DNA of 49,649 nt from Anaerolineae bacterium (GTDB lineage: Bacteria > Chloroflexota > Anaerolineae > B4-G1). Below the pieces are notes generated by a model. That model was not told where the DNA came from. It did not search any database and saw only the letters and a program-made list of their open reading frames with translations. The DNA is taken from the NCBI GenBank assembly GCA_016931785.1, contig JAFGED010000202.1, positions 1-49,649 of the forward strand. Reading direction: 5' to 3'. The position numbers and the translations under genes are program-made. Positions 6,909 to 49,649 of this stretch are shown one piece after another. Positions within the stretch are counted from its first letter, which is position 1. Every line of letters begins with the position of its first letter.

Positions 6909-6922
6909 GCCACAATGGTTTG

Positions 6923-7015
6923 AATCCCCCGCTTGGCGACAATCCCTTGGATCGCGCCTCACCCCCGCCGCAATTGCCAACCGCTTCGCGTTTGGACGCT
7001 CTCCGGCTTTTCCCC
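6923..7015 (-). mobile_element. IS200/IS605-like mini-element, left-end-only copy D
   Basis: Minus strand TTTAT|GGGGAAAAGCCGGAGAGCGTCCAAACGCGAAGCGGTTGGCAAT...AAGCGGGGGATT, collinear with the left part of copy C (26702-26929); no right-end hairpin. Confidence 0.7.
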
Positions 7016-8469: not shown

Positions 8470-9174
8470 CTAGTGTCGGCTATACCCCTTCTCGCGCAGG
8501 GGTACCCAGCCATGCCGAAGTGCATAGACAGCTGCCTGCGTCCGATCCGCCACCCCCAGCTTACCCAAGATAGCAGTCATGTGGTTCTTGACCGTCTGGT
8601 GGCTGATTCCCAAGTAATACGCGATTTCCTTATTGCTCATCCCCTGAATGACCAGCTCTAGAATTTCCATCTCGCGGGGAGAGAGCGGCGCAAAACACGA
8701 CTCATCCTCCTCAAACCCACCGCCGCCGAAACGCCGAAACTCCTCCAAGAGCCAATCGCCGATGCCATCTTCATCGAGCACCTTGCCGCCGATGACGTAT
8801 TGCCCCTGACTGACTTGACGGATGACGTCCACCAAACGCTCTGGGCTGACGTCCTTGGCGTGAAAAGCCGAAGCCCCTGCTCGAACCGCGTGATAGACCT
8901 GTTCTTCATCGTCGTAGGCGGTGAGCATGATGACGGTGATCTCGGGACAATTCGTCTTGACCTTGCGCGTGGCCTGCAGGCCATTCAGTTTCGGCAGATT
9001 GATGTCCATCACCACAACGTCAGGAAGAAGCTCCTGCGCCACCTCAACAGCCTCTTCGCCATCGCCAGCCTCACCAATGATATCCAGATCGCCGTGGGAA
9101 GCCAAGACGTTCCGCAAGCCTTGCCGGAAGACCGGATGGTCGTCCACAATCACTACCTTGATCTTGTCTGCCAT
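8470..9174 (-). CDS. NarL/FixJ (DegU-like) response regulator
   Basis: IVDDHPVFRQG, VVMDINLP, LTAYDD; LuxR HTH LSPREMEIL..GMSNKEIA..L.IS..TVKNH. Confidence 0.93.
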   Translation of the reverse strand: MADKIKVVIVDDHPVFRQGLRNVLASHGDLDIIGEAGDGEEAVEVAQELLPDVVVMDINLPKLNGLQATRKVKTNCPEITVIMLTAYDDEEQVYHAVRAGASAFHAKDVSPERLVDVIRQVSQGQYVIGGKVLDEDGIGDWLLEEFRRFGGGGFEEDESCFAPLSPREMEILELVIQGMSNKEIAYYLGISHQTVKNHMTAILGKLGVADRTQAAVYALRHGWVPLREKGYSRH

Positions 9175-9267
9175 GTGCCGCCTGCCCTCCCGCGCAAAAC
9201 ATCTCCTCGCTGTTCATCATAGAGTATACCACATGATGGGGAAGATGCGCAAACAAGGAAAAGGACC

Positions 9268-9386
9268 GGGGTGCATTTGCCCCTGGGGCGGCGGGCAATC
9301 GGCTTCCAGCAAAATAGGCGCAACACACGCTTGCGAATCTCGTTTTTGTGCAGCGGGCTTGGATGCCCCAAAGGACAAACACACCC
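9268..9386. repeat. Intergenic repeat module (GGGTGCATTT family), copy 2
   Basis: Similar to 5624-5688 and 5785-5806. Confidence 0.75.
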
Positions 9387-9424
9387 AAAGGACCGGGGCG
9401 CCTTTCGAATGGAGCAGCAACCCT

Positions 9425-9551
9425 GTGAAGATCCCCGGCGCTTTGCGCCGGGGATCTTCCTAAGGGAAAAGCCCTTGGGGACCGCCGCCCCAAAATCCCC
9501 CGCTTTGCCATTCACCCCCACCACAAGCAGTGGGGTTTCTAGCTTTTCCCC
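9425..9551 (-). mobile_element. IS200/IS605-like mini-element, copy A (127 bp, intergenic)
   Basis: Minus strand TTGAT|GGGGAAAAGC..hairpin..GTGAATGGC...GGAAGATCCCCGGCGCAAAGCGCCGGGGATCTTCAC; the target pentamer contains the stop codon of the upstream gene. Confidence 0.8.
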
Positions 9552-9552
9552 A

Positions 9553-11232
9553 TCAAGGCCAACAAGGCCGATCTTGCTCGACTAGATCAGCCACGTAGGC
9601 CAACACGGCCTCTGTTTCTCCCTCAGCAGGTTCTCCCCGCTCAAGCAGTAGAATGCGCCCAGCCCAGTACCGCACACGAAAGTCGCCAGTGCCCATAATC
9701 TGTGTAACGATCTCCCCGTAGCTTGCGCGCGGGTCTGGAGCCGGGACGACCCTGCAATCCACCAAGTCAAATAACACATAGTCCACCATCTCCAGGTGAT
9801 CCAGCCGAAGCGGGGCAGGATACTCCAAAGCCACCAACACGCGGCGGTCAGCGAGTTGCGGCCCCAAGCGATTGACCGTGGCGACACCTGCATCGGGAGG
9901 AATCTGCGCCAGCGCCTCCGCAATCTGATCGTGGTGGGGTTCAGGCTGGAACATCCCCTCTCGAGCGTAGAGACAGATCGGGTTGAGGGCAATGTTGATA
10001 CCCAGCGTACCAAACACCATAAACGCAAGCCCCAAACGGTAGAGGCGGAGTCTGCCAGGGCGATGCAGTCGCCGCAAACCCTCAGACACCGCCAAGAAAA
10101 ACCAGGGGATCAGCACCGCAGGGTACTGGTAACCGACAGAGTGGAACGCCGGGCGCTCCCCCAGCAAGAGATAGGCCAGTGAAGGCAACGCCACTAGAAA
10201 GGAAGTGAAGCTCCCCGGCGCTTTGCGCCGGGACTTCCTAAGGGAAAAGCCCTCGGGGGCTGCCGCCCCCAAATCTCTCGCCTTGCCATTCACCCCCACC
10301 TCTTGCGGTGGGGTTCTCTGGCTTTTCCCCGTAGACCCCAGAAAAGGAAGAAATCCCAAGGGTAGAAACAGGTGAATCAAGTAGAGGGCAATCGTCTCAA
10401 AAGACGCGCTTCCTATGGGCTGCGCGGTTCCTCCTTGATCAGAGCTTACTCCTCCCAACAGCTTGATCCATAGCTGCCAGAAGCGATACGGCTGCCCCTC
10501 GTTGAAGGTGGGGATAATCAAGCCAAAACACAAAATCGCCCAGACTCCAGCCAGGATCACGAGCCCCAGTCCAACCCGCCGTCTCTTTCCCCACAAAAGA
10601 TTGACCACTCCCCACACTGCTATGGGGATCACCAACTCCTCCTTGACAGACAGGGCCAGCAACACGGCAACCCAGAAAAGGGCCGTTCGCTCTTCATGCA
10701 AAGCCCAATAAGCCAAAAGTATCAGAGGGACGGAAAAAGCGACAGGATGAAAATCCACCAGGTTGAGAAAGCCCAACGCAGGATAGGCCAGATAGCAACA
10801 AGAGACGATGAACGCCGCCCACGCATCCCCCGTCTGCTTGTGGACGACACAATAGAGCGGGAAAGCCGCCAGACCGAGAGCCACGCTCTGCAGGATGAGC
10901 AGCAAACGCGGATCCGGCCACACCCGATAGAGGGGCGCCAAGAAAAGCAGGATCGGGCGAACGTGGTTGCCCAAATAGCTGCCGATGAGCCCTGCGTTTG
11001 TCGCCCGATCTATGGAGGTCTCGAACCAGCGCCCGTGGGCCGTGTTCCAGGTCACCTGGGCCATGATGCCCAGGTCGAAAGTTGAGGAATAGAAATTGTT
11101 GTGCCTGACGACAGACAGCGCGCTGAAAGCAACCACATAAACCAGAATCAGCGGCAAAAGCAAGAGCCAAACTCGAGCTTTATGGCGAAACACAGCACCC
11201 CTTTGCGATGAATCTACTAACCACAAAACCAT
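9553..11232 (-). CDS. DUF2079-like GT-C membrane protein carrying a 42-aa in-frame element insertion
   Basis: TFDLGIMAQVTWNT, GNHVRPIL, DFHPV, KEE; paralog of 32941..34473; start uncertain. Confidence 0.85.
   Translation of the reverse strand: MVLWLVDSSQRGAVFRHKARVWLLLLPLILVYVVAFSALSVVRHNNFYSSTFDLGIMAQVTWNTAHGRWFETSIDRATNAGLIGSYLGNHVRPILLFLAPLYRVWPDPRLLLILQSVALGLAAFPLYCVVHKQTGDAWAAFIVSCCYLAYPALGFLNLVDFHPVAFSVPLILLAYWALHEERTALFWVAVLLALSVKEELVIPIAVWGVVNLLWGKRRRVGLGLVILAGVWAILCFGLIIPTFNEGQPYRFWQLWIKLLGGVSSDQGGTAQPIGSASFETIALYLIHLFLPLGFLPFLGSTGKSQRTPPQEVGVNGKARDLGAAAPEGFSLRKSRRKAPGSFTSFLVALPSLAYLLLGERPAFHSVGYQYPAVLIPWFFLAVSEGLRRLHRPGRLRLYRLGLAFMVFGTLGINIALNPICLYAREGMFQPEPHHDQIAEALAQIPPDAGVATVNRLGPQLADRRVLVALEYPAPLRLDHLEMVDYVLFDLVDCRVVPAPDPRASYGEIVTQIMGTGDFRVRYWAGRILLLERGEPAEGETEAVLAYVADLVEQDRPCWP
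10205..10330 (-). mobile_element. IS200/IS605-like mini-element, copy B (126 bp), in frame within a CDS
   Basis: TCTAC|GGGGAAAAGC...GAGCTTCAC; removing it restores gap-free alignment with the paralog. Confidence 0.88.
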
Positions 11233-11261
11233 CGCGCTTGATTATCAGCCTTTAACAAATC

Positions 11262-11399
11262 CTAACAAGCTTTCTCAATCCTCATCCCCAGGTCGAAAGT
11301 AAACGAGTAGAAATTGTCGTGCTTCAAGACGGACAACGCACTGAAAGTCACGATGTAGATCAAAACCAGTGTCCAGAGCCAGCCCGGCGATTTGTTCAT
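11262..11399 (-). pseudogene. Truncated N-terminal fragment (45 aa) of a third DUF2079-like gene
   Basis: MNKSPGWLWTLVLIYIVTFSALSVLKHDNFYSFTFDLG|MRIEKAC*; matches the N-termini of 9553..11232 and 32941..34473 up to DLG. Confidence 0.85.
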
Positions 11400-11404
11400 A
11401 CGAC

Positions 11405-12973
11405 TCAATCGATACGGCGGTAGACTTCCTGTTCGTCAATAACGGTCTCTAAAGCGTACTTTCCCTCCAGTTCCGTGTAAAGCCAATCAGCCCTTGGAAT
11501 GTTATTGCTCTCTCCAAGAATAACGTACTTTGTTCGCGGTGAAAAGATACGTTGATACGGCCCAGTAGCATCCGCGTAAATAGGCCATAGTACATCAATA
11601 GCACAGCGACGATCCGCCAGGTAGTAAATCTGAGTGTCCCCAGACCAATAATAGATGTAGTCAGATGGCGAGGTGCGCGCCGCTACATAGTCGGCCAATT
11701 CTTGCACACGTATCAAGCCCTTTCCACCAATTGCCCCTTTAAGCACAAAGTCATGCCATGTGTCTGGGCCAAATTTATACGCAAGATAGCAATAGTAGTA
11801 GTTATAGTTCAACACCACGCTAAAGGACAACACCAACACCACCGACAGCATCAGAAACGCCAGCACAGCGAAGCGGGTCACCCGCGAGCGGCTTTTTCCA
11901 ACACGATACAACCTGAGCAAGAACCACGCTGCTAGCAGCACCAGGGGTGGAAGTACGAGCAAATAGTAATGGGAAAAGTAAGTGCGCGTAATACCTGCCT
12001 CTAGAAAAGAAATCGCATACCACGCCACGACGTAGAATTCAGTCAAACACTGCCTATACTGCTTATAACGCCCAAGAAGCAAATTAGCCGCCGCCATGAC
12101 CGAGCCGGTGATGCTGAATATCACAAGCGCGACGTTGTTTTCGGACAAGCCGACAAAGGGGAAAAGAAACATATACTCAGGCCCAGGGGAAGCGGCCGTG
12201 CGAAAACTGACATACCCCCTACCCAGCGTGAATACCGCCAGAAACCGGGGCAACAGCCCCACCAATCCAAAATAGATGACGACGGGCAACAGGCCAATCA
12301 CGGCCCCTCCCGCCACCCATAGACCACGCACCACGGTCTCCCGCCACACAGCCCGCTTCGACCTAGCCAACCAAAACTCTACAAACAACACGACGCCAGC
12401 CAGCGCCCAAGGCGAAACATAGACCGCCTTGAATAGGAAGGCTGCCGAACCCAACATGCCCACAAACATAAATTTCCAAGCGGCGGCACGCCGAGCTATC
12501 AGACGTAGCAGGACCAAGACTCCCGCAATTCGCGGCAGGTTGGCAAACAGCTCTATCTCGGCTGTATGTCCAAGCAGATGCACGTGAGAGGAAAGCAAAG
12601 CATAAACACCCGCTGCCAACGCCCCTGCGATCTTGTGCCCTGTCATCAAAAGTCCCAACCGATACAACAAATACACCGTGACGATGGTCCACAAAAGCAG
12701 AAAGAACTTGACAGACCACAGACTGTCCCCAAACAGAGAAAAGGCCAATGCATAGAGATAGTATGTAGCCGGCATGTGGTGGTTGGAATGATGTGTGCCG
12801 TAAAGGGGATCGCCCCGCACGATTTGCCGAGCGTGATAAGCAATCGCCCCGCTATCATTGTCAAACGGCTGTTCCAAAGACGGCGCTCTCAGCAAGGCGA
12901 CCAACAACGCCAACGCAACGACGATGATCCATTCCCTGCTATATCCTAACCTTCCGATCAATTTCTTTATCAT
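11405..12973 (-). CDS. ArnT/PMT-like (GT39/GT83-type) membrane glycosyltransferase
   Basis: TM1 followed by FDNDSGAIAY, ELFANLP, many TMs, HYYLL, soluble C-terminal domain. Confidence 0.75.
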   Translation of the reverse strand: MIKKLIGRLGYSREWIIVVALALLVALLRAPSLEQPFDNDSGAIAYHARQIVRGDPLYGTHHSNHHMPATYYLYALAFSLFGDSLWSVKFFLLLWTIVTVYLLYRLGLLMTGHKIAGALAAGVYALLSSHVHLLGHTAEIELFANLPRIAGVLVLLRLIARRAAAWKFMFVGMLGSAAFLFKAVYVSPWALAGVVLFVEFWLARSKRAVWRETVVRGLWVAGGAVIGLLPVVIYFGLVGLLPRFLAVFTLGRGYVSFRTAASPGPEYMFLFPFVGLSENNVALVIFSITGSVMAAANLLLGRYKQYRQCLTEFYVVAWYAISFLEAGITRTYFSHYYLLVLPPLVLLAAWFLLRLYRVGKSRSRVTRFAVLAFLMLSVVLVLSFSVVLNYNYYYCYLAYKFGPDTWHDFVLKGAIGGKGLIRVQELADYVAARTSPSDYIYYWSGDTQIYYLADRRCAIDVLWPIYADATGPYQRIFSPRTKYVILGESNNIPRADWLYTELEGKYALETVIDEQEVYRRID

Positions 12974-25008: not shown

Positions 25009-26958
25009 TCAAGGCTCCCTCGGCACGTAATCGGCGATCACCAAGGGCGGTATGGTAGGCACCCTGGATACCGTCCCGGCTTCCACCTGCCAACCTGCAG
25101 AGATGCTTCTCACCAGCGGCGTCTCCTGATCGGCCAGCCGGGCCACTCGCACGCGCCCCACACCCTGCGCGGCCAGCCGCTCGTCCAACGCGCTCCATTC
25201 GTCCGGCGTGCGCACGACGAGGAACGGCACCTCGCCGTACACCTCCGGCGCGATCTGCGGCACGAACCAGAGATCGGTGACGACGACGGTCCTATCAGGC
25301 GCGCGAAGCAGCGTGCGCGCGAGCACGTCGTTCCCGGCACGGACGTGCCACAGCTTCATCACGCCCACCGCCTGTACCGCCGCTCCGGCCAGCAACAGCG
25401 TCACTAACGCCCCGCGCACCGCGTACCGCTCCATCGAGGAACGCGCGCCCCGTTCCAGACGATCCCAGCGCTCGACGGCCAACAGCACGAGCGGCCCCAG
25501 TAGCGGCGTCAAATAGCGCGGTCCCCACTGCCACCCGCCGGACTGGCGGCCCAGCACGACCGATAATACCACGACCCACACACACCAAACTGCCAGCTGC
25601 CGCCGCCAACGGCCCCGGGTCGCTACGCTCTCGGCTCGCTCTCCGAATCTCAAAAACGCCAGGCAGGCCACCGGCGCTCCGAACAACAGGTCAATCGGGT
25701 GGTAGCCGCGCGACACCAACACCACCGCGCCCACAGCCACCAGCACGAGGCCGAGACATTCGACCGTCGAACCCAATCGCCCGGCCAGGGCCGGACGCAG
25801 CCTGCGATAGGCATACGCCATCCCGAAAACCGCCAGCCCGCCGGCCAGGATCACCAGCACGCCCAGCTGCCGGCTCTCCACGACCATCTGGCTCATCTCG
25901 AACAAACGCCTGAACGACCACACGCGGGTCTCAAAAGCCGATGGGGCAAAGTTCATCGCGGCCTGGCCGCCGATCGCTTGGCCCACGACGGCGGCCTGAT
26001 ACGCCCAGCCTACCAGGCCTGCCAGGCCCAGTCCGGCCGTCACCCAACCCAGCGCCGGCCACATCGAACGCCGCACGACCAGCACGGCCAGCAAGGCCAA
26101 CACAGAAGTACCCGCCTCCGGACGGGTCGCCACCGCCGCTCCCAGGCACAACCCCGCCGCGATCCCCGACAGGACCCGCGACTGGCGCATGTCTGGAATC
26201 ACCAGCGTCAACGCCCCCCAGATCAGCACGCTGGCGAGCGTGTGCCCCCAAAACGTCACACTGTAAAACAGCCACGACGAGGCCAGTCCCAGCGCCAGCA
26301 CGACGAAAAAGGCGACCCGTCCAGAAAACCGGCGGCCCACCCAAGCCGCCAGGGCCAGCCCCCCCACCCCCGCGATCAGCGGCGGGGCGTAGAGCGCTGG
26401 CAGTCCCCCAGCCGACAGCAACAGGCTGGACAGAAATATGTAGGGCAGCGTATAGATCGTGAGAACGCGATCTCCCTCCCACACGGCAAAGGGCGCGCCC
26501 AGCGGGGCCAGAGCGTGATCCGGATCGAGGACGGCATTGGCCCCGGCGTAGGAAGCCCAGGGCGTGCGCCAGCCGTTGGCGATCCAGGCCTCCATCTGCC
26601 ACAGCTTGACGCCGGCATCTCCGCTCCAAAAGCCGCGACAGGGCGACAGCGCCAGCACGATCCCCACGTACAGCGCGCCAACGATCACGACCAGCACCCA
26701 CGTGAAGCTCCCCGGCGCAAAGCGCCGGGGCTTCCGGGAAGACTCCCCTTCGGGGAGCTTCCTAAGGGAAGAAGCCTGTGCGAGCTTCGCTCGCGCGGGG
26801 GCGGCCGCCCCCAAATCCCCCGCTTTACGGCAATCCTGCGGATTACGGCAATCCAAGGGATTGCACCTCATCCCCACCGCAATGCGATTGCCAACCGCAA
26901 AGCGGTTGGACGCTTTCTGGCTTTTCCCCGTCAAGCGCAGGAGATTTTCACGGTTCAT
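25009..26958 (-). CDS. GT-C-type membrane protein with a 76-aa in-frame element insertion near the N-terminus
   Basis: Start MNRENLL at an ATGA overlap; FWSGDAGVK, FWGH, TRPE, QWGPRYL. Confidence 0.75.
   Translation of the reverse strand: MNRENLLRLTGKSQKASNRFAVGNRIAVGMRCNPLDCRNPQDCRKAGDLGAAAPARAKLAQASSLRKLPEGESSRKPRRFAPGSFTWVLVVIVGALYVGIVLALSPCRGFWSGDAGVKLWQMEAWIANGWRTPWASYAGANAVLDPDHALAPLGAPFAVWEGDRVLTIYTLPYIFLSSLLLSAGGLPALYAPPLIAGVGGLALAAWVGRRFSGRVAFFVVLALGLASSWLFYSVTFWGHTLASVLIWGALTLVIPDMRQSRVLSGIAAGLCLGAAVATRPEAGTSVLALLAVLVVRRSMWPALGWVTAGLGLAGLVGWAYQAAVVGQAIGGQAAMNFAPSAFETRVWSFRRLFEMSQMVVESRQLGVLVILAGGLAVFGMAYAYRRLRPALAGRLGSTVECLGLVLVAVGAVVLVSRGYHPIDLLFGAPVACLAFLRFGERAESVATRGRWRRQLAVWCVWVVVLSVVLGRQSGGWQWGPRYLTPLLGPLVLLAVERWDRLERGARSSMERYAVRGALVTLLLAGAAVQAVGVMKLWHVRAGNDVLARTLLRAPDRTVVVTDLWFVPQIAPEVYGEVPFLVVRTPDEWSALDERLAAQGVGRVRVARLADQETPLVRSISAGWQVEAGTVSRVPTIPPLVIADYVPREP
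26702..26929 (-). mobile_element. IS200/IS605-like mini-element, copy C (228 bp), in frame within a CDS
   Basis: TTGAC|GGGGAAAAGC...GGAAGCCCCGGCGCTTTGCGCCGGGGAGCTTCAC with additional internal hairpins. Confidence 0.85.
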
Positions 26959-28169
26959 CGTTCGACCACGAGCCAGCGCCGCGCTAACACAAAGACAGCC
27001 AGCAGCCCAAAAGGCAGCGGCAGGTAGACGGACGGGTGCTCGAACTTGCCCTGCAACGTGGTCAGGAACAGCACCCACAGCCCCACCAGCAGCGCGACCT
27101 CGATCAGCAAAATCCACCACACGCCGACGCGCCTGCGTTGGAGGGCGCGAAACACCATCGCCAGGGGCAGGAGCAGGATCACGTAATTCGTCGTCGCGGT
27201 GCGCACCGCCACCAGGTTGGTGACGACCAGGCACAATCCCACCGCCCAGTCGAACCAGTTTGACTTGCCCTGTCGCAGCGCCCACCAGGACGCCCAAACC
27301 AGGCCGGCGACGGCCAGGCCGGAGAGCGCCCACTCACCCCAGGTCCCCAGGAACGGGAACGGGATGTGCGTTATGATCCACATCGGAGAGCCGATGGCCG
27401 TGTAGCTCGTGTAACGGCCCACCTGGCCCAAAAAGGCGCCAAGCCACCCCGGCTCGACGACCCACGAAGCCCCCAAAAACAATATCATCCAGCCCGCGGA
27501 ACTCGCCACAAAGCGCCAGCGCCGCTCACGCACTGCCCACCAAAGCAGCAAGGGGATGAGCAAAAAGATCATCTGCGGCTTGAAGGTGGAGAGTGCCATG
27601 CAGAACCCGGCCAGGACGTCCCTTTCCTCTTTCAGCGCCCACAGGGCCAGCGCGACCACGGCAAAGACAAAGATCGCAAACTGCCCCAGCAGCAGCGCGC
27701 GGGCGTGCGGGTAAAAGACAAACACCCAGACCGCCGTGCCGAGCAGCAGCCAACGCGGCGGCCGCCAATCGTAAAGACGCAGCGCCAGCAGCAGCCCTGC
27801 CAGCAGGCAGACCTCCAGCACCACCAGCCAGATCGCCTCCGCCCACGGGTACGGCATCCAGACGATCGGAAAGAGAAGAAACACGGTGTAGAACGGGTAC
27901 GCGAAAGGCCCGGGGTCGAACTCCTGCTCCTCCTCCGGCGGGATCGGGCGGCCGTAGATGAGCATCTGGATCTGGCGCGTCGCCTCGTCAGAGTAGGGGC
28001 TAACGCCATCGACCCAAAAGGCCCGCGCGCCGGCCCAGCGGGAGGCAAAGTCGTTAGCGCCAGGATAGCGGGAGGTGAAAAAGTGATAGGTCGCCACCAC
28101 GTCGGCGGCCAGCAGCAACACCACCAGGAACAGCAAAATCAAACGGCCTGAAAGCGAACGCGCGAACAC
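26955..28169 (-). CDS. GT87/DUF2029-like membrane glycosyltransferase
   Basis: ANDFASRW.GAR, FAYP, GQF, FKPQ. Confidence 0.82.
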   Translation of the reverse strand: MFARSLSGRLILLFLVVLLLAADVVATYHFFTSRYPGANDFASRWAGARAFWVDGVSPYSDEATRQIQMLIYGRPIPPEEEQEFDPGPFAYPFYTVFLLFPIVWMPYPWAEAIWLVVLEVCLLAGLLLALRLYDWRPPRWLLLGTAVWVFVFYPHARALLLGQFAIFVFAVVALALWALKEERDVLAGFCMALSTFKPQMIFLLIPLLLWWAVRERRWRFVASSAGWMILFLGASWVVEPGWLGAFLGQVGRYTSYTAIGSPMWIITHIPFPFLGTWGEWALSGLAVAGLVWASWWALRQGKSNWFDWAVGLCLVVTNLVAVRTATTNYVILLLPLAMVFRALQRRRVGVWWILLIEVALLVGLWVLFLTTLQGKFEHPSVYLPLPFGLLAVFVLARRWLVVER

Positions 28170-31439: not shown

Positions 31440-32953
31440 TCGCCGTCTACCTCCCGTAAGTCACACAGCAAGAGACTCACACCATACCACACTCTCGCAT
31501 CCTCGCAGTCGTAGCTCCTCGCGGCCCGTTCCACGATCCCGCGATGGCGCTCGGCAAGCTCCTGCGACATCTGCACGTCGGCGGTGACGAGCCACAACCG
31601 CTCCCGCCCGGCGATGGCCTCGTCGAGTGACTGGATCCGCTGCCCGGCCCAATCCCACGTATAGGGTGGCAGCCAGATTTCTGGGTCATTGTTCAGCAAA
31701 TAGCTCTCCGCCCCCGGCGCATAGTAGCGCAGCGGCAAGTAGGTGCTATCGTGCAGATGAAAGAGAACGTCCCCCTCCCGCCAGCCCTCCCGCACCCCCC
31801 CGCCAACCTCGCGAAACGGCGGCTTGGCCGGGTCGGGGTTGAGATAATAGTTCCCAAGCGAGATCGCTATCAAGACCGCCAGAACCCCGTAAAGAACCCG
31901 CACCGGAGAGCCCTTGGGCGGATGCGCCAATCCCCATCCCAGCAGCAGCACGTAAGCCGGCGCGACCAGGCTGAAGGAACGGTCCAGGTAAACGGGCTTG
32001 GCCAGCCAGGAGATCACCAGAGCGATCAAGTTTGGAGCCAGCACCAACGCCAGCAGCAAAAGCGCCCGCTGGCGCGCCTCGCCACGGGCGCGGACGCCAG
32101 CCCAAGCCACGAGTGTGATGATGGACAAAGCCATGAAAAGCGCCACCGGATTCAGGAACACGGGCGTCGTATGGCTAAAGAGCAGATAAACCAGCGTCTT
32201 GACGAGTTCCAGCGGGGAGGGCGTGGAGAGCCAAAAGCCGGTCGCCACCTGCTGAGTTTGCGCCAGCGCCGATGGCGCGTGCGGCCCCCACAACACCAGG
32301 GCCACCCCATCGGCCAGGAGCAGGCCCCACCAATAACGCCGGTCTTGCGGCCATTTCAGCAAAACAAAGGCGTGGAGCACCAGCAGCGTGAACGCGGTAA
32401 AATAGTGCGCGCAAAGATTCAGGGCGAACAGAAAACCCAGCACGACCCAGCGCCACCCACTCGCCTTCTCGCAAGCGCGGGCGAACCCCCACAGCAGCAA
32501 CGCCGATAGCAAGATGACGAGCGCGTACAATCGGGTCTCCTGGGCAAAGTAAACCTGGAAGGGCAGCACGGCCGTCAGCAGCGCGGCAGCCAGCCCGGTG
32601 GCGGGGGTAAACAGCTCGCGGCCGAGCGCGTATATCACAGGAACGGTCAGCAGCCCACACAGCGCCGAAAAGCCGCGCAGCACCGTTTCACTCTCGCCCA
32701 ACCGAATCCAGAAATGAAGCAGAAAGTGATAAAGCGGGGGTAGAATTGGCTCCAGCCGCTGGGCGAGAATAGCCCAGGCCGGTTGCCGCGCCACCAGCCA
32801 ACTGAATGCCTCGTCGGCCCACAGGCTGCTGGCGCCGATGTGAAGCAGGCGCAGGACGCAAGCCAACACCAGAACCGCCAGCAGCCAGACCGGGCTTTCC
32901 ACACGCGGGAGACGGCCCAGAAGAGAACGCAGACGAGAGCTTACGGCCAGCAC
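31436..32953 (-). CDS. GT39/PMT-like membrane glycosyltransferase
   Basis: SLWADEA, PPLYH, QETRLY, AHYF; related to 17704..19158 and 23480..24988. Confidence 0.85.
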   Translation of the reverse strand: MLAVSSRLRSLLGRLPRVESPVWLLAVLVLACVLRLLHIGASSLWADEAFSWLVARQPAWAILAQRLEPILPPLYHFLLHFWIRLGESETVLRGFSALCGLLTVPVIYALGRELFTPATGLAAALLTAVLPFQVYFAQETRLYALVILLSALLLWGFARACEKASGWRWVVLGFLFALNLCAHYFTAFTLLVLHAFVLLKWPQDRRYWWGLLLADGVALVLWGPHAPSALAQTQQVATGFWLSTPSPLELVKTLVYLLFSHTTPVFLNPVALFMALSIITLVAWAGVRARGEARQRALLLLALVLAPNLIALVISWLAKPVYLDRSFSLVAPAYVLLLGWGLAHPPKGSPVRVLYGVLAVLIAISLGNYYLNPDPAKPPFREVGGGVREGWREGDVLFHLHDSTYLPLRYYAPGAESYLLNNDPEIWLPPYTWDWAGQRIQSLDEAIAGRERLWLVTADVQMSQELAERHRGIVERAARSYDCEDARVWYGVSLLLCDLREVDGE

Positions 32954-34473
32954 GGTCGCCCTTCCTCCACCAGGTCGTCCACATAGGCCCGCACCTCGTC
33001 CACCTCTTCCCCTGGCGGAAGGCCGCGTTCCAAAAGAAGGATGCGATCAGACCAATAGCGCACGCCAAAATCCCGCGTGTCGAGAATCTCGTATGTCATT
33101 CGCCCATAGTCGCCTCTCGGGTCCTGCGTGTGAAACAGGCGACAATCCACCAGGTCCAACAAGACATAGTCCACTTCGGCCATGTGGTCCATATTCAAGC
33201 CGGTCGTGTATTTTTCAAGGCCAATCAAGCAGCGCCGATTGGCCAGGTGAGGTCCAAAAGGATTGACGGTGGCGACACCGGCCCGGGGAGGGATCAGCGC
33301 CATCGCCGCTTCGATCTGCTCGTGCTGAGGCATGTGCATAAAGTAACCGCTCAGCCAACTGGTTCGGACCGGGTTAAAGGGCAAGTTTGCGCCCAATGTC
33401 CCTATCAACAGCAAACTTACAGGCAGCCACTTTTTCAAATCGTGCCGCAGCCGCAAGCGTCTTTCCAGCCTGGACAATCCCTGGATGGTGGCTAGGAACA
33501 GCCAGGGAATCAACACGGCAGGATATTGAAAACCGACTTGGTGCAAAGCAGCTCGGTCGCTCAAAAGCAAATATGCAAACGAAGGCCAAGACACGGCGAA
33601 TAATTCGGGCCCGAACAGAGGCAAAAACCCCAAGGGTATTAAGAGATGGGCAACAAAGTAGGCCGAGTCAACGGAAAACAAAGCCCCTCCAGAGCCCCCA
33701 CCACTACTCCCCAATTCTCCCAAAAACGGCAACCGAGACCATAGATCAAAGAAACGATAGGCGCGTCCTTCGTTGGCAGCGGGGATGATCACGATGAAAC
33801 AAAGAAACGCCCAGGCGATGGCCGTTCCCAGCAACCACACCCCTCTCCTGCGCCACGCTGAAAAGAACAGACAATAAACACCAAAGGCTGCTACAGGAAC
33901 GACCAACTCCTCCTTGGTCGATAGGGTAAGCAAGATCATCGCCCAGAAGAGAATCTTACGCTCTTCCAACAAAGCCCAATAGGCAAAAAGCAATGCAGGG
34001 ACACAAAAAGCCACGGGGTGAAAATCAAACAGGTTGATAAAGCCCAAGGCCGGATACAACAAATACACAATAACCAGGACGTAATGCAAAATAGGGCGCT
34101 TTAAATTTCGCCGTGCAATCCAGTACAACGGTACAGCCCCCACTGCCAGCACAATCGATTGCATGCTCAACAACACGCGAGGGTCGGGCCACAGCCGGTA
34201 CAGCGGCGCCAGAAAGAGCAGCAGGGGCCGCACGTGATTGCCCATATAGCTGCCGATCAGTTCTGTATCCATCGCTCGATCCAGCGACGTCTCAAACAGC
34301 CGCCCATGTGCCGTATTCCAGGTGACCTGGGTCATGATGCCCAGATCGAGCGTAAAAGAATGAAAGTTGTCATGCTTGACTATCGACAAAGTCGCATATG
34401 TCGCCACGTAAACCAACATCAGCACACAGAGCCATATCGGCACAGCCTTACTCAGCTTCGGAACGAACGTCAT
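32941..34473 (-). CDS. DUF2079-like GT-C membrane protein
   Basis: TLDLGIMTQVTWNT, GNHVRPL, DFHPV, KEE; ends RPCWP like 9553..11232. Confidence 0.85.
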   Translation of the reverse strand: MTFVPKLSKAVPIWLCVLMLVYVATYATLSIVKHDNFHSFTLDLGIMTQVTWNTAHGRLFETSLDRAMDTELIGSYMGNHVRPLLLFLAPLYRLWPDPRVLLSMQSIVLAVGAVPLYWIARRNLKRPILHYVLVIVYLLYPALGFINLFDFHPVAFCVPALLFAYWALLEERKILFWAMILLTLSTKEELVVPVAAFGVYCLFFSAWRRRGVWLLGTAIAWAFLCFIVIIPAANEGRAYRFFDLWSRLPFLGELGSSGGGSGGALFSVDSAYFVAHLLIPLGFLPLFGPELFAVSWPSFAYLLLSDRAALHQVGFQYPAVLIPWLFLATIQGLSRLERRLRLRHDLKKWLPVSLLLIGTLGANLPFNPVRTSWLSGYFMHMPQHEQIEAAMALIPPRAGVATVNPFGPHLANRRCLIGLEKYTTGLNMDHMAEVDYVLLDLVDCRLFHTQDPRGDYGRMTYEILDTRDFGVRYWSDRILLLERGLPPGEEVDEVRAYVDDLVEEGRPCWP

Positions 34474-49562: not shown

Positions 49563-49649
49563 GTAACTACTCAGGCTATTCGCCTGAGCAGTCTCCCTCG
49601 CTCGAAAAGGGGAGAGATGGGGGGTTTGGAGAGCGGCTTCGCCGCTCTC
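49563..49649. mobile_element. Second copy of the GTAACTACTCAG MITE, truncated by the window end
   Basis: gtaactactcaggctattcgcctgagcagtctccctcgctcgaaaagggg...gagagcggcttcgccgctctc is collinear with 2120-2206. Confidence 0.88.

Follow-up and report, generated by a model that had tools for sequence, protein, structure and literature searches.

How a gene may gain 126 nucleotides (nt) within its coding sequence and remain open is the question raised by a DUF2079 gene of an Anaerolineae bacterium (GTDB lineage Chloroflexota; Anaerolineae; B4-G1). The gene lies in a stretch of 49,649 nt, hereafter the window, which is contig C172 (JAFGED010000202.1) of a 4.81-Mb, 481-contig genome (GCA_016931785.1; G000) that is 90% complete. 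An initial annotation, made from the sequence alone, had described at 10205-10330 a 126-bp element of 42 stop-free codons within a glycosyltransferase gene, and had read it as a non-autonomous derivative of the IS200/IS605 family, adding peptide loops to membrane enzymes in the manner of the Rickettsia palindromic elements. The present analysis supports this reading: the 126 bases are very probably a non-autonomous IS200/IS605-family derivative, of the kind known as palindrome-associated transposable elements (PATEs), moved in trans by a TnpA of the Y1 (HUH) type. The structural signatures noted initially held, and to them has been added a covariation between a four-base guide inside the element and the target in the flanking DNA.

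Positions 10205-10330 are an insertion into the DUF2079 gene. Read on the minus strand, the segment (copy A) and its flanks run TCTAC/GGGGAAAAGCC...GGGGAGCTTCAC/TTCC, slashes marking junctions here and below, and re-reading of the sequence returned the 126 stop-free bases as first described, encoding the 42 residues GKSQRTPPQEVGVNGKARDLGAAAPEGFSLRKSRRKAPGSFT; one of the three frames in the orientation of the gene, and three of the six overall, are open across them. Once the segment is taken out, the paralogue at 32941-34473 aligns without further gaps, as had been claimed, and so do four orthologues belonging to other genera within the family, all of which lack the segment. The search for an empty site among orthologues, recommended initially, was extended by a search of 5.8 billion proteins, which gave 124 matches; 20 of these, the top matches together with unusually long ones, were aligned. 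The 42 residues are absent from 19 of the 20, so that the possibility that all orthologues contain them, named at the outset as one that would overturn the reading, does not hold. The closest insert-free homologue (P0002), 91% identical over the aligned columns, reads FLGS/TSFLVALPS; as it has LGS/TSF at the junction, the Ser codon completing the TCTAC target is older than the insertion. The insert is retained in a relative (P0001), 93% identical, which has the identical 42 amino acids (aa). In run X3 one 121-base contig joins position 10204 to 10331, skipping exactly 10205-10330, and is a weak hint only, because one of its sides has just 28 bases. As for the reads and contigs of the four runs, those of X1 leave the flanks of the gene uncovered and those of the RNA run cover parts only, and neither allows an inference on expression or absence.

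The boundaries of the element are fixed by empty sites. Filled and empty alleles could be paired at the nucleotide level at three loci, the filled ones on metagenome contigs and the empty ones in this genome (Table 1). In all three the element stands exactly 3' of a TTTAC, TTTAT or TCTAC already present in the empty allele, with no gain, loss or duplication of bases; target-site duplication is also absent at the empty sites recognised at the protein level, which are those of both in-frame insertions of the window and of a third one, of 21 aa, described below. The left flank is TYTAY at most of the 67 unique insertion sites. Insertion is thus exactly 3' of a pre-existing TYTAY, and the pentamer is host DNA, which bears out the initial description of copy A as inserted 3' of TCTAC without duplication. 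A fixed flanking target, no duplication and no inverted ends make up the insertion signature described for IS200/IS605 elements (PMC3201880, PMC5934647). A classical MITE (miniature inverted-repeat transposable element) was considered and rejected, terminal inverted repeats and target-site duplication both being absent: the first 20 bases and the reverse complement of the last 20 match at 6 of 20 positions. No head-to-tail or right-left circle junctions were found in the assembled DNA among 32 loose matches.

The element belongs to a repeat family with a common plan. A blastn search of its own genome, another of the checks initially suggested, gave 69 matches, of which some 10 are complete and many are truncated where a contig ends; the close intergenic copy already pointed out at 9425-9551 (copy B) was confirmed, and the copy on contig C346 is identical to copy A at 113 of 126 bases. 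A pattern scan added one further genome record, of the same genus (G002), and 42 metagenome loci, and BLAST across 145 genomes of the order found the element in five, as short elements only, the distribution being narrow and patchy. In its 5' part the plan comprises the TYTAY flank, GGGGAAAAGCC, a spacer of 6-7 nt and a hairpin CCCCACCGC..GCGGTGGGG or a variant of it; the 3' part comprises a conserved block, a second hairpin, GGCTTTTCCC, TTAG-GAAG, the hairpin CCCCGGCGC-TTT/AAA-GCGCCGGGG (the slash here separating two forms of the loop) and AGCTTCAC. The bases GGCTTTTCCC pair with the first 11 bases of the element to form the stem P1, which encloses the left and the middle hairpins in a three-way junction. 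From hairpin foot to cut there are 17 nt on the left and 8 nt on the right, compared with 19 and 10 in IS608. The element measures 63 to about 230 nt, the variation in size being due to additional small hairpins that are nested in it at several points, and all complete copies among the 42 metagenome loci are of 63-158 nt.

In 26 distinct copies of 118-132 nt, standard pairs occupy 93.4% of the 971 pair cells, a share that does not exceed 58.7% once the partners are shifted against each other; by helix, the paired cells amount to 99.6% for helix 1 (P1), 85% for helix 2 (the left hairpin, IP_L), 83.9% for helix 3 (the middle hairpin) and 98% for helix 4 (the right hairpin, IP_R). Two pairs of helix 3 have changed on both sides; covariation within the helices is modest because the copies are young. 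Three of the four bases of the right guide GAAG are invariant in these copies, and the fourth is conserved in at least 90%. The subterminal hairpins at both ends, the lack of terminal inverted repeats and a right end of the form GAAG-hairpin-...TCAC, all of them listed in the initial annotation, were recovered.

The target covaries with a short stretch of the element itself. In IS608, as described in PMC5934647 and PMC3201880, a 4-nt guide directly 5' of the hairpin foot reads the cleavage or target tetranucleotide through the pairs A+16:T-3, A+17:T-4 and, by implication, G+19:C-1, while A+18 (guide base 3) flips out into the protein and A-2 has no pairing partner. Positions 14-17 of the element (ARAR) similarly abut the foot of the left hairpin, and as in IS608 a 4-nt guide stands 5' of each foot. 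Over the 67 unique sites, guide base 2 and target base -4 are A:T in 30, G:C in 18, G:T in 8 and A:C in 2 (Fisher 5.5e-7), and guide base 4 and target base -1 are A:T in 28, G:C in 12, A:C in 5 and G:T in 3 (Fisher 2.6e-5); for guide base 1 and target base -3 the counts are 47 A:T, 5 G:C, 5 A:C and 1 G:T. Guide base 3 is A at 48 of the 67 sites and target base -2 is A at 58. Individual spacers behave accordingly: AGAAAAC is found at TTTAT in 14 of 14 sites, AGAGAAC at TCTAY in 9 of 15, and the variant guide GATG goes with a TCAC site in 4 of 4 loci, while the subfamily with the guide AAAG occurs at TTAC-type sites (TTTAC), which is the guide/target pair used by IS608. Since the flank is host DNA, the association of guide and flank is not one of co-inheritance. 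As a statistical rule it is supported that guide and target covary according to the IS608 pairing geometry (1/-3, 2/-4 and 4/-1, with an unpaired A-2). The right end fits the same rule, as GAAG would predict cleavage at TCAC, and the element closes with ...AGCTTCAC, its end lying 8 nt from the foot; its GAAG...TCAC parallels the IS608-type GAAT...TCAA.

Candidate enzymes are encoded in the same genome. Two IS200/IS605 TnpA genes are present, on C111 and C173 (150-152 bits, NF033573), TnpB genes are found on C173 and C316, and C445 carries a gene for a transposase of the type associated with repetitive extragenic palindromes (REPs), the REP-associated tyrosine transposase (RAYT; NF047646, with 130 bits where the cut-off is 80). 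No match to the element was found at the tnpA, tnpB or RAYT loci by blastn of the genome. Both tnpA elements, their DNA being read by eye, show TCAT, 15 or 17 nt, GAAA and a CCCC-footed hairpin, which fits the guide rule; this is weighed lightly, because the pattern was sought deliberately. The tnpB-only element of C316 ends, at positions 710-742, in GAAG-CCCCTCAC-TGAAA-GTGAGGGG-AGTGTCAC, overlapping the 3' end of tnpB. This right end has the same design as that of the short element, and among 33 sites it is the sole one of its kind outside the family besides two likely chance matches. The expectation, stated initially, of an IS200/IS605 element sharing these ends was borne out in part, by the C316 right end and the two tnpA genes; an autonomous element with both ends was not recovered in the searches detailed below, which for this organism covered a fragmented genome, 90% complete. 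The best-supported reading is that the family would be mobilised in trans by an IS200-type TnpA.

Several observations weigh against this reading. The guide AGAA of copy A predicts CTAT and the copy sits at CTAC, with a mismatch at -1; the same mismatch (AGAA at CTAC) is seen in L098, the target of which is proven by an empty site. The -1 signal is not column-specific in a mutual-information table, neighbouring columns correlating too, and five copies in which an ATTCNNN spacer (ATTCACC-type) replaces the guide are still found at TYTAY. The right end does not discriminate between the two readings, because the pairing of GAAG can equally be taken as a mere lengthening of the right stem. Both subterminal hairpins follow one design (CCCC...GGGG, with a T-rich loop) and differ in sequence, and forms of 63-94 nt are without left hairpin and guide. 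The searches for an autonomous parent were also negative. In the genome itself (90% complete, 481 contigs) blastn returned short copies only, and of the 18 left ends listed as having no right module within 400 nt, each was either truncated by the end of a contig, part of a degenerate copy or part of a long variant. The pattern scan of genome contigs gave one match, in the same-genus genome, and no parent there; none was present among the 42 metagenome loci, nor among the 145 genomes of the order by BLAST, and the right-end pattern, sought in five related genomes, matched only in G002 (the same as G041), again with no parent. Both scan patterns needed the 3' half of P1 beside the right hairpin, and parents arranged otherwise would escape them.

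If the element is an IS200/IS605 derivative, it would move in the form of single-stranded DNA. Both subterminal hairpins would be bound by a Y1 TnpA acting in trans; cleavage would fall 3' of the flanking YTAY at the left end and 3' of TCAC at the right end, and the new site would be 3' of a YTAY able to pair with the four guide bases next to the left hairpin. In the DUF2079 gene the element landed after the AC of a Thr codon; with 126 nt, a terminal AC and a stop-free frame, it leaves the gene open.

Other explanations were weighed against this one. It could be supposed that the family consists of palindromic repeats of the kind known as REPs and bacterial interspersed mosaic elements (BIMEs), handled by the RAYT of this genome rather than by an IS200/IS605 TnpA. 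Like the element, REPs and BIMEs are hairpin repeats linked to the Y1 family, through RAYTs (TnpA-REP), and the genome does contain a RAYT gene; RAYTs are described as Y1 enzymes acting on hairpins (PMC3333891), and the element-bearing genome of the same genus, G002, gave only weak Y1 matches (best 36 bits). However, the RAYT gene is flanked by palindromes of its own, CCTGCCCTAC...GTAGGGCAGG, different from the element, and by blastn no copy of the element flanks it; moreover, the distinct ends, the fixed orientation, the flank-guide covariation of IS608 type and the length of 63-230 nt are not REP-like, and this explanation is held to be very unlikely. REPs are palindromes of 20-40 nt with a conserved GTAG head. 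An assignment of the element to REPs or BIMEs was rejected on its length of 63-230 nt, its asymmetric ends, the lack of a GTAG head and its location away from the RAYT gene. As to that gene, two direct units of about 100 nt with the CCTGCCCTAC...GTAGGGCAGG palindromes precede it (C445:1300-2000, L033); a 10-mer of the palindrome occurs 55 times in the genome, and the palindromes carry a GTAG motif, presumably the REP feature.

The family might also, or mainly, be a structured-RNA gene, for example a guide-RNA scaffold used in trans by TnpB. PATEs are reported often to encode such guide RNAs (PMC10055086), TnpB genes are present, one of them with the same right-end design, and stem P1 together with several unpaired blocks is conserved beyond the apparent need of TnpA binding. 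RNA-library contigs of run X21 cover copies of the element, but they are uninformative on transcript start, strand and level, and DNA carry-over is possible; the pairing is equally expected of single-stranded DNA, no Rfam family was matched in 9000-11500 at E up to 1, and no likeness to the sequence upstream of the C316 tnpB right end was seen, either by eye or as a blastn match. An RNA gene is thus considered unlikely. It is scarcely conceivable that the segment is removed after transcription or translation, as an intron or intein would be, leaving the protein unchanged, although splicing had been raised as a possibility at the outset: the strong secondary structure and the exact in-frame length would suit such removal, but 126 nt with no ribozyme match in Rfam and no intein-like residues in the 42 aa would not, and most copies are intergenic, with other lengths (127, 128, 134) that are not multiples of three. 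No joint skipping the element was found in the RNA run, the cover of which is thin.

The consequences for the host protein were considered from its predicted structure. The AlphaFold model (predicted template modelling score 0.81) is predicted to have the GT-C multi-helix membrane fold: in a Foldseek search GT-C enzymes or GT-C-containing complexes were all of the top 30 matches listed, the closest solved structures being STT3, ALG12, ALG9, DPY19, PglB and ArnT (best E 8.6e-6, TM score about 0.45). The name glycosyltransferase, given initially, therefore stands as a likeness of fold and does not stand as a family assignment; "glycosyltransferase-like" is a fold-level label only, because Pfam names just DUF2079 and the GT-C likeness comes from a predicted model. 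In this model the insert is a coil between helices 278-298 and 343-357, with a mean predicted local distance difference test score of about 44-48, and the 42-residue loop is predicted to be disordered. The peptide is basic, with nine Lys and Arg against three Asp and Glu (+6 net). The insertion site is probably a cytoplasmic turn between two membrane helices, to judge from the charged loops GKRRR (214-218) and RRLHRPGRLRLYR (386-398) and the four hydrophobic spans between them, and a basic loop would be tolerated there. The gene belongs to a cluster of membrane glycosyltransferase-like genes in the window (11405-12973, 25009-26958, 26955-28169, 32941-34473 and 9553-11232), with families PMT_2, Alg9-like (matched weakly and below the cut-off), GT87 and DUF2079 (two genes), and two genes of this cluster hold in-frame copies.

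The second of these copies, copy C, follows codon 10 of a membrane-protein gene and adds 76 aa between MNRENLLRLT and WVLVVIVG. No orthologue of this gene was found in 25 relatives at E 1e-30, and the status of the insert was settled by the protein database, in which two homologues are insert-free, P0122 (86% identical) with MKRGNLLRLTWVLVA.. and P0123 with MNRETLLRLTWALVV.. The recorded gene call (P0121) starts after the insert, and translation may therefore bypass it. A third case is provided by the 63-nt form, by which a conserved soluble protein is extended by 21 aa in metagenome loci L066 and L099 and in proteins P0134 and P0135, and which is absent from all six further homologues aligned, of 281 matches. 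Open reading frames running through the element with at least 60 codons on each side number 11 among 69 elements, and seven of them were judged spurious, by their Arg/Pro-rich composition alone; another of the 11 lies on C335. In-frame insertions confirmed by homology are three, independent of each other, of which two affect membrane proteins encoded in this window, and most copies are intergenic. The frame is kept at ACN codons because the target and the element both end in AC, the one open sense frame of the element being read. As intact frames have been retained across 7% and about 12% protein divergence, comparison of the protein sequences suggests that the inserts are at least tolerated, and the DUF2079 protein presumably still works. 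A more far-reaching view would have the family serve as a trans guide-RNA scaffold for TnpB, built on the P1 three-way junction and giving the element its own homing, and at the same time as a recurrent source of cytoplasmic loops, and of extensions at the N terminus, in membrane glycosyltransferases, a part of which may have been kept for function. The last part would draw on the identity of the 42 aa in a relative that is otherwise 7% different and on the retention of the 21-aa insert across about 12%; the view as a whole is unlikely.

Table 1. Features of the window, parts of copy A, and paired filled and empty insertion sites (positions in the window; slashes mark junctions).
Feature	Position	Strand	Remarks
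Host gene	9553..11232	(-)	Open reading frame of 559 aa including the insert; Pfam DUF2079, E 3.8e-62; membrane protein, predicted GT-C-like fold
Copy A	10205..10330	(-)	126 nt, probable non-autonomous element, in frame in the DUF2079 gene; adds residues 301-342
Target pentamer TCTAC	10331..10335	(-)	Host DNA, codons Ser-Thr, retained at the left flank
Left terminus GGGGAAAAGCC, 5' half of long-range stem P1	10320..10330	(-)	In all size variants
Left guide, element positions 14-17 (AGAA in copy A)	10314..10317	(-)	Abuts the foot of the left hairpin on its 5' side
Left subterminal hairpin IP_L (CCCCACCGC..GGTGGGG)	10294..10313	(-)	
Middle hairpin GGGGGCGGCAGCCCCC	10255..10270	(-)	
GGCTTTTCCC, 3' half of stem P1	10242..10251	(-)	
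Right guide GAAG	10234..10237	(-)	Abuts the foot of the right hairpin on its 5' side
Right subterminal hairpin IP_R (TCCCGGCGC-AAA-GCGCCGGGG)	10213..10233	(-)	
Right tail AGCTTCAC	10205..10212	(-)	Final TCAC is the putative right cleavage site; boundary set by empty sites
Copy B	9425..9551	(-)	127 nt, intergenic, 87% identical to copy A
Copy C	26702..26929	(-)	228 nt, extra nested hairpins, in frame in gene 25009-26958
Copy D	~6921..7015	(-)	Left-part remnant of about 95 nt (approximate lower bound), TTTAT flank, right module missing
Paralogous DUF2079 gene without insert	32941..34473	(-)	Comparison sequence, P0073
Filled L079, empty C181			Empty junction gcgTTTAC/gttttacac
Filled L078, empty C313			Empty junction cTTTAT/tcgtatagtc
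Filled L098, empty C202			Empty junction aaTCTAC/tttcccatacc

Further observations concern the copies and their structure. The target of copy B, TTGAT (9552-9556), overlaps the TGA stop of the DUF2079 gene, and the element begins one base past the stop. Size variants include C173:5976-6183, C101:1688-1914, a 187-nt copy on C338 and copy C (26702-26929) at the long end, and L066/L099 (63 nt) and C359:1449-1539 (91 nt) at the short end; some of the nested extra hairpins are copies of neighbouring stem halves. The five copies with ATTC-type spacers are C149:35118-35243, C370:15967-16070, C241:1110-1237 (G000), L090 and L095, and in them the spacer is the exact complement of sequence 3' of the left hairpin of the same copy, forming a 17-bp perfect palindrome. 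The 3-nt loop of the right hairpin (10222-10224 in copy A) is TTT or AAA, which are exactly complementary, in copies that are nearly identical in other respects, and the left hairpin likewise has GCTTGC or GCAAGC, which suggests hairpin inversion by template switching as the origin of the complementary variants. A 168-nt copy at a TCTAT site occurs in a genome assigned to another family within the order (L118; G097:C627:477-644), and hints either at transfer between lineages or at mis-binned contigs. Contigs of the X21 RNA library match 9800-9976 without differences, and one of them runs from an element copy into sequence adjacent to copy B. Another repeat family (GTAACTACTCAGGCTATTCGCCTGAG...) is present at 49573-49649 of the window and at the ends of contigs C50, C86, C170, C277, C302 and others, a 26-mer of it having 10 exact matches in the genome.

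Among known systems the PATEs are the nearest in structure. These non-autonomous IS200/IS605 derivatives have been described in Haloquadratum walsbyi (PMC3119063), and PATE-like elements with clade-specific flank and internal motifs in Geobacillus stearothermophilus (PMC10055086). With them, as they are described in these two papers, the present element shares the absence of inverted ends, the near-terminal palindromes, the absence of target duplication, a length too short for a transposase, a 5' targeting sequence of 4-5 bases and an end-to-palindrome distance that is longer on the left than on the right, and it falls within the structural definition of a PATE given in PMC3119063. It differs in being bacterial (Anaerolineales-like), the likeness being one of structural description, in the conserved long-range stem P1 that encloses the left hairpin, in growth from 63 to 230 nt by nested hairpins, and in having three copies in frame inside genes. 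Like IS608 of Helicobacter pylori (TTAC) and ISDra2 of Deinococcus radiodurans (TTGAT), it inserts 3' of a T-rich tetra- or pentanucleotide; unlike them, it has no internal tnpA or tnpB, and its hairpin sequences are unrelated. The analogy with the Rickettsia palindromic elements, drawn in the initial annotation, is a fair one given three independent in-frame insertions: these elements and intragenic MITEs are also short palindromic mobile DNA in frame in genes, adding a peptide and sparing the gene from destruction, and in-frame intragenic insertion of small mobile repeats is called "not unusual", the Rickettsia elements being the extreme case (PMC10969869). The MITEs of Coxiella offer another intragenic comparison (PMC5896051). 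In contrast to the Rickettsia elements, the transposition chemistry of the present family would be a different one, with no inverted ends and no duplication, and its in-frame events are three, most copies being intergenic.

Taken together, these data leave the knowledge of the mechanism unchanged, the event being of an already known kind and the locus a new example of it; they also extend the gene-less IS200/IS605 derivatives to an uncultured Anaerolineales-like lineage. The 67 independent sites constitute a natural data set in which small changes of a 4-base guide go with matching changes of the insertion site, the same behaviour that was engineered in the laboratory for IS608. For sequence analysis, it is of practical concern that gene callers can misplace starts near the inserts, as in P0121, and that assemblies break at these repeats, many copies lying at contig ends. 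Three independent cases are also provided in which a protein was made longer by the element and was not disrupted, and two of these concern neighbouring glycosyltransferase-like genes of the cell envelope; and if TnpB were to use the element as a guide RNA in trans, a gene-less element of 126 nt would gain a homing system of its own.

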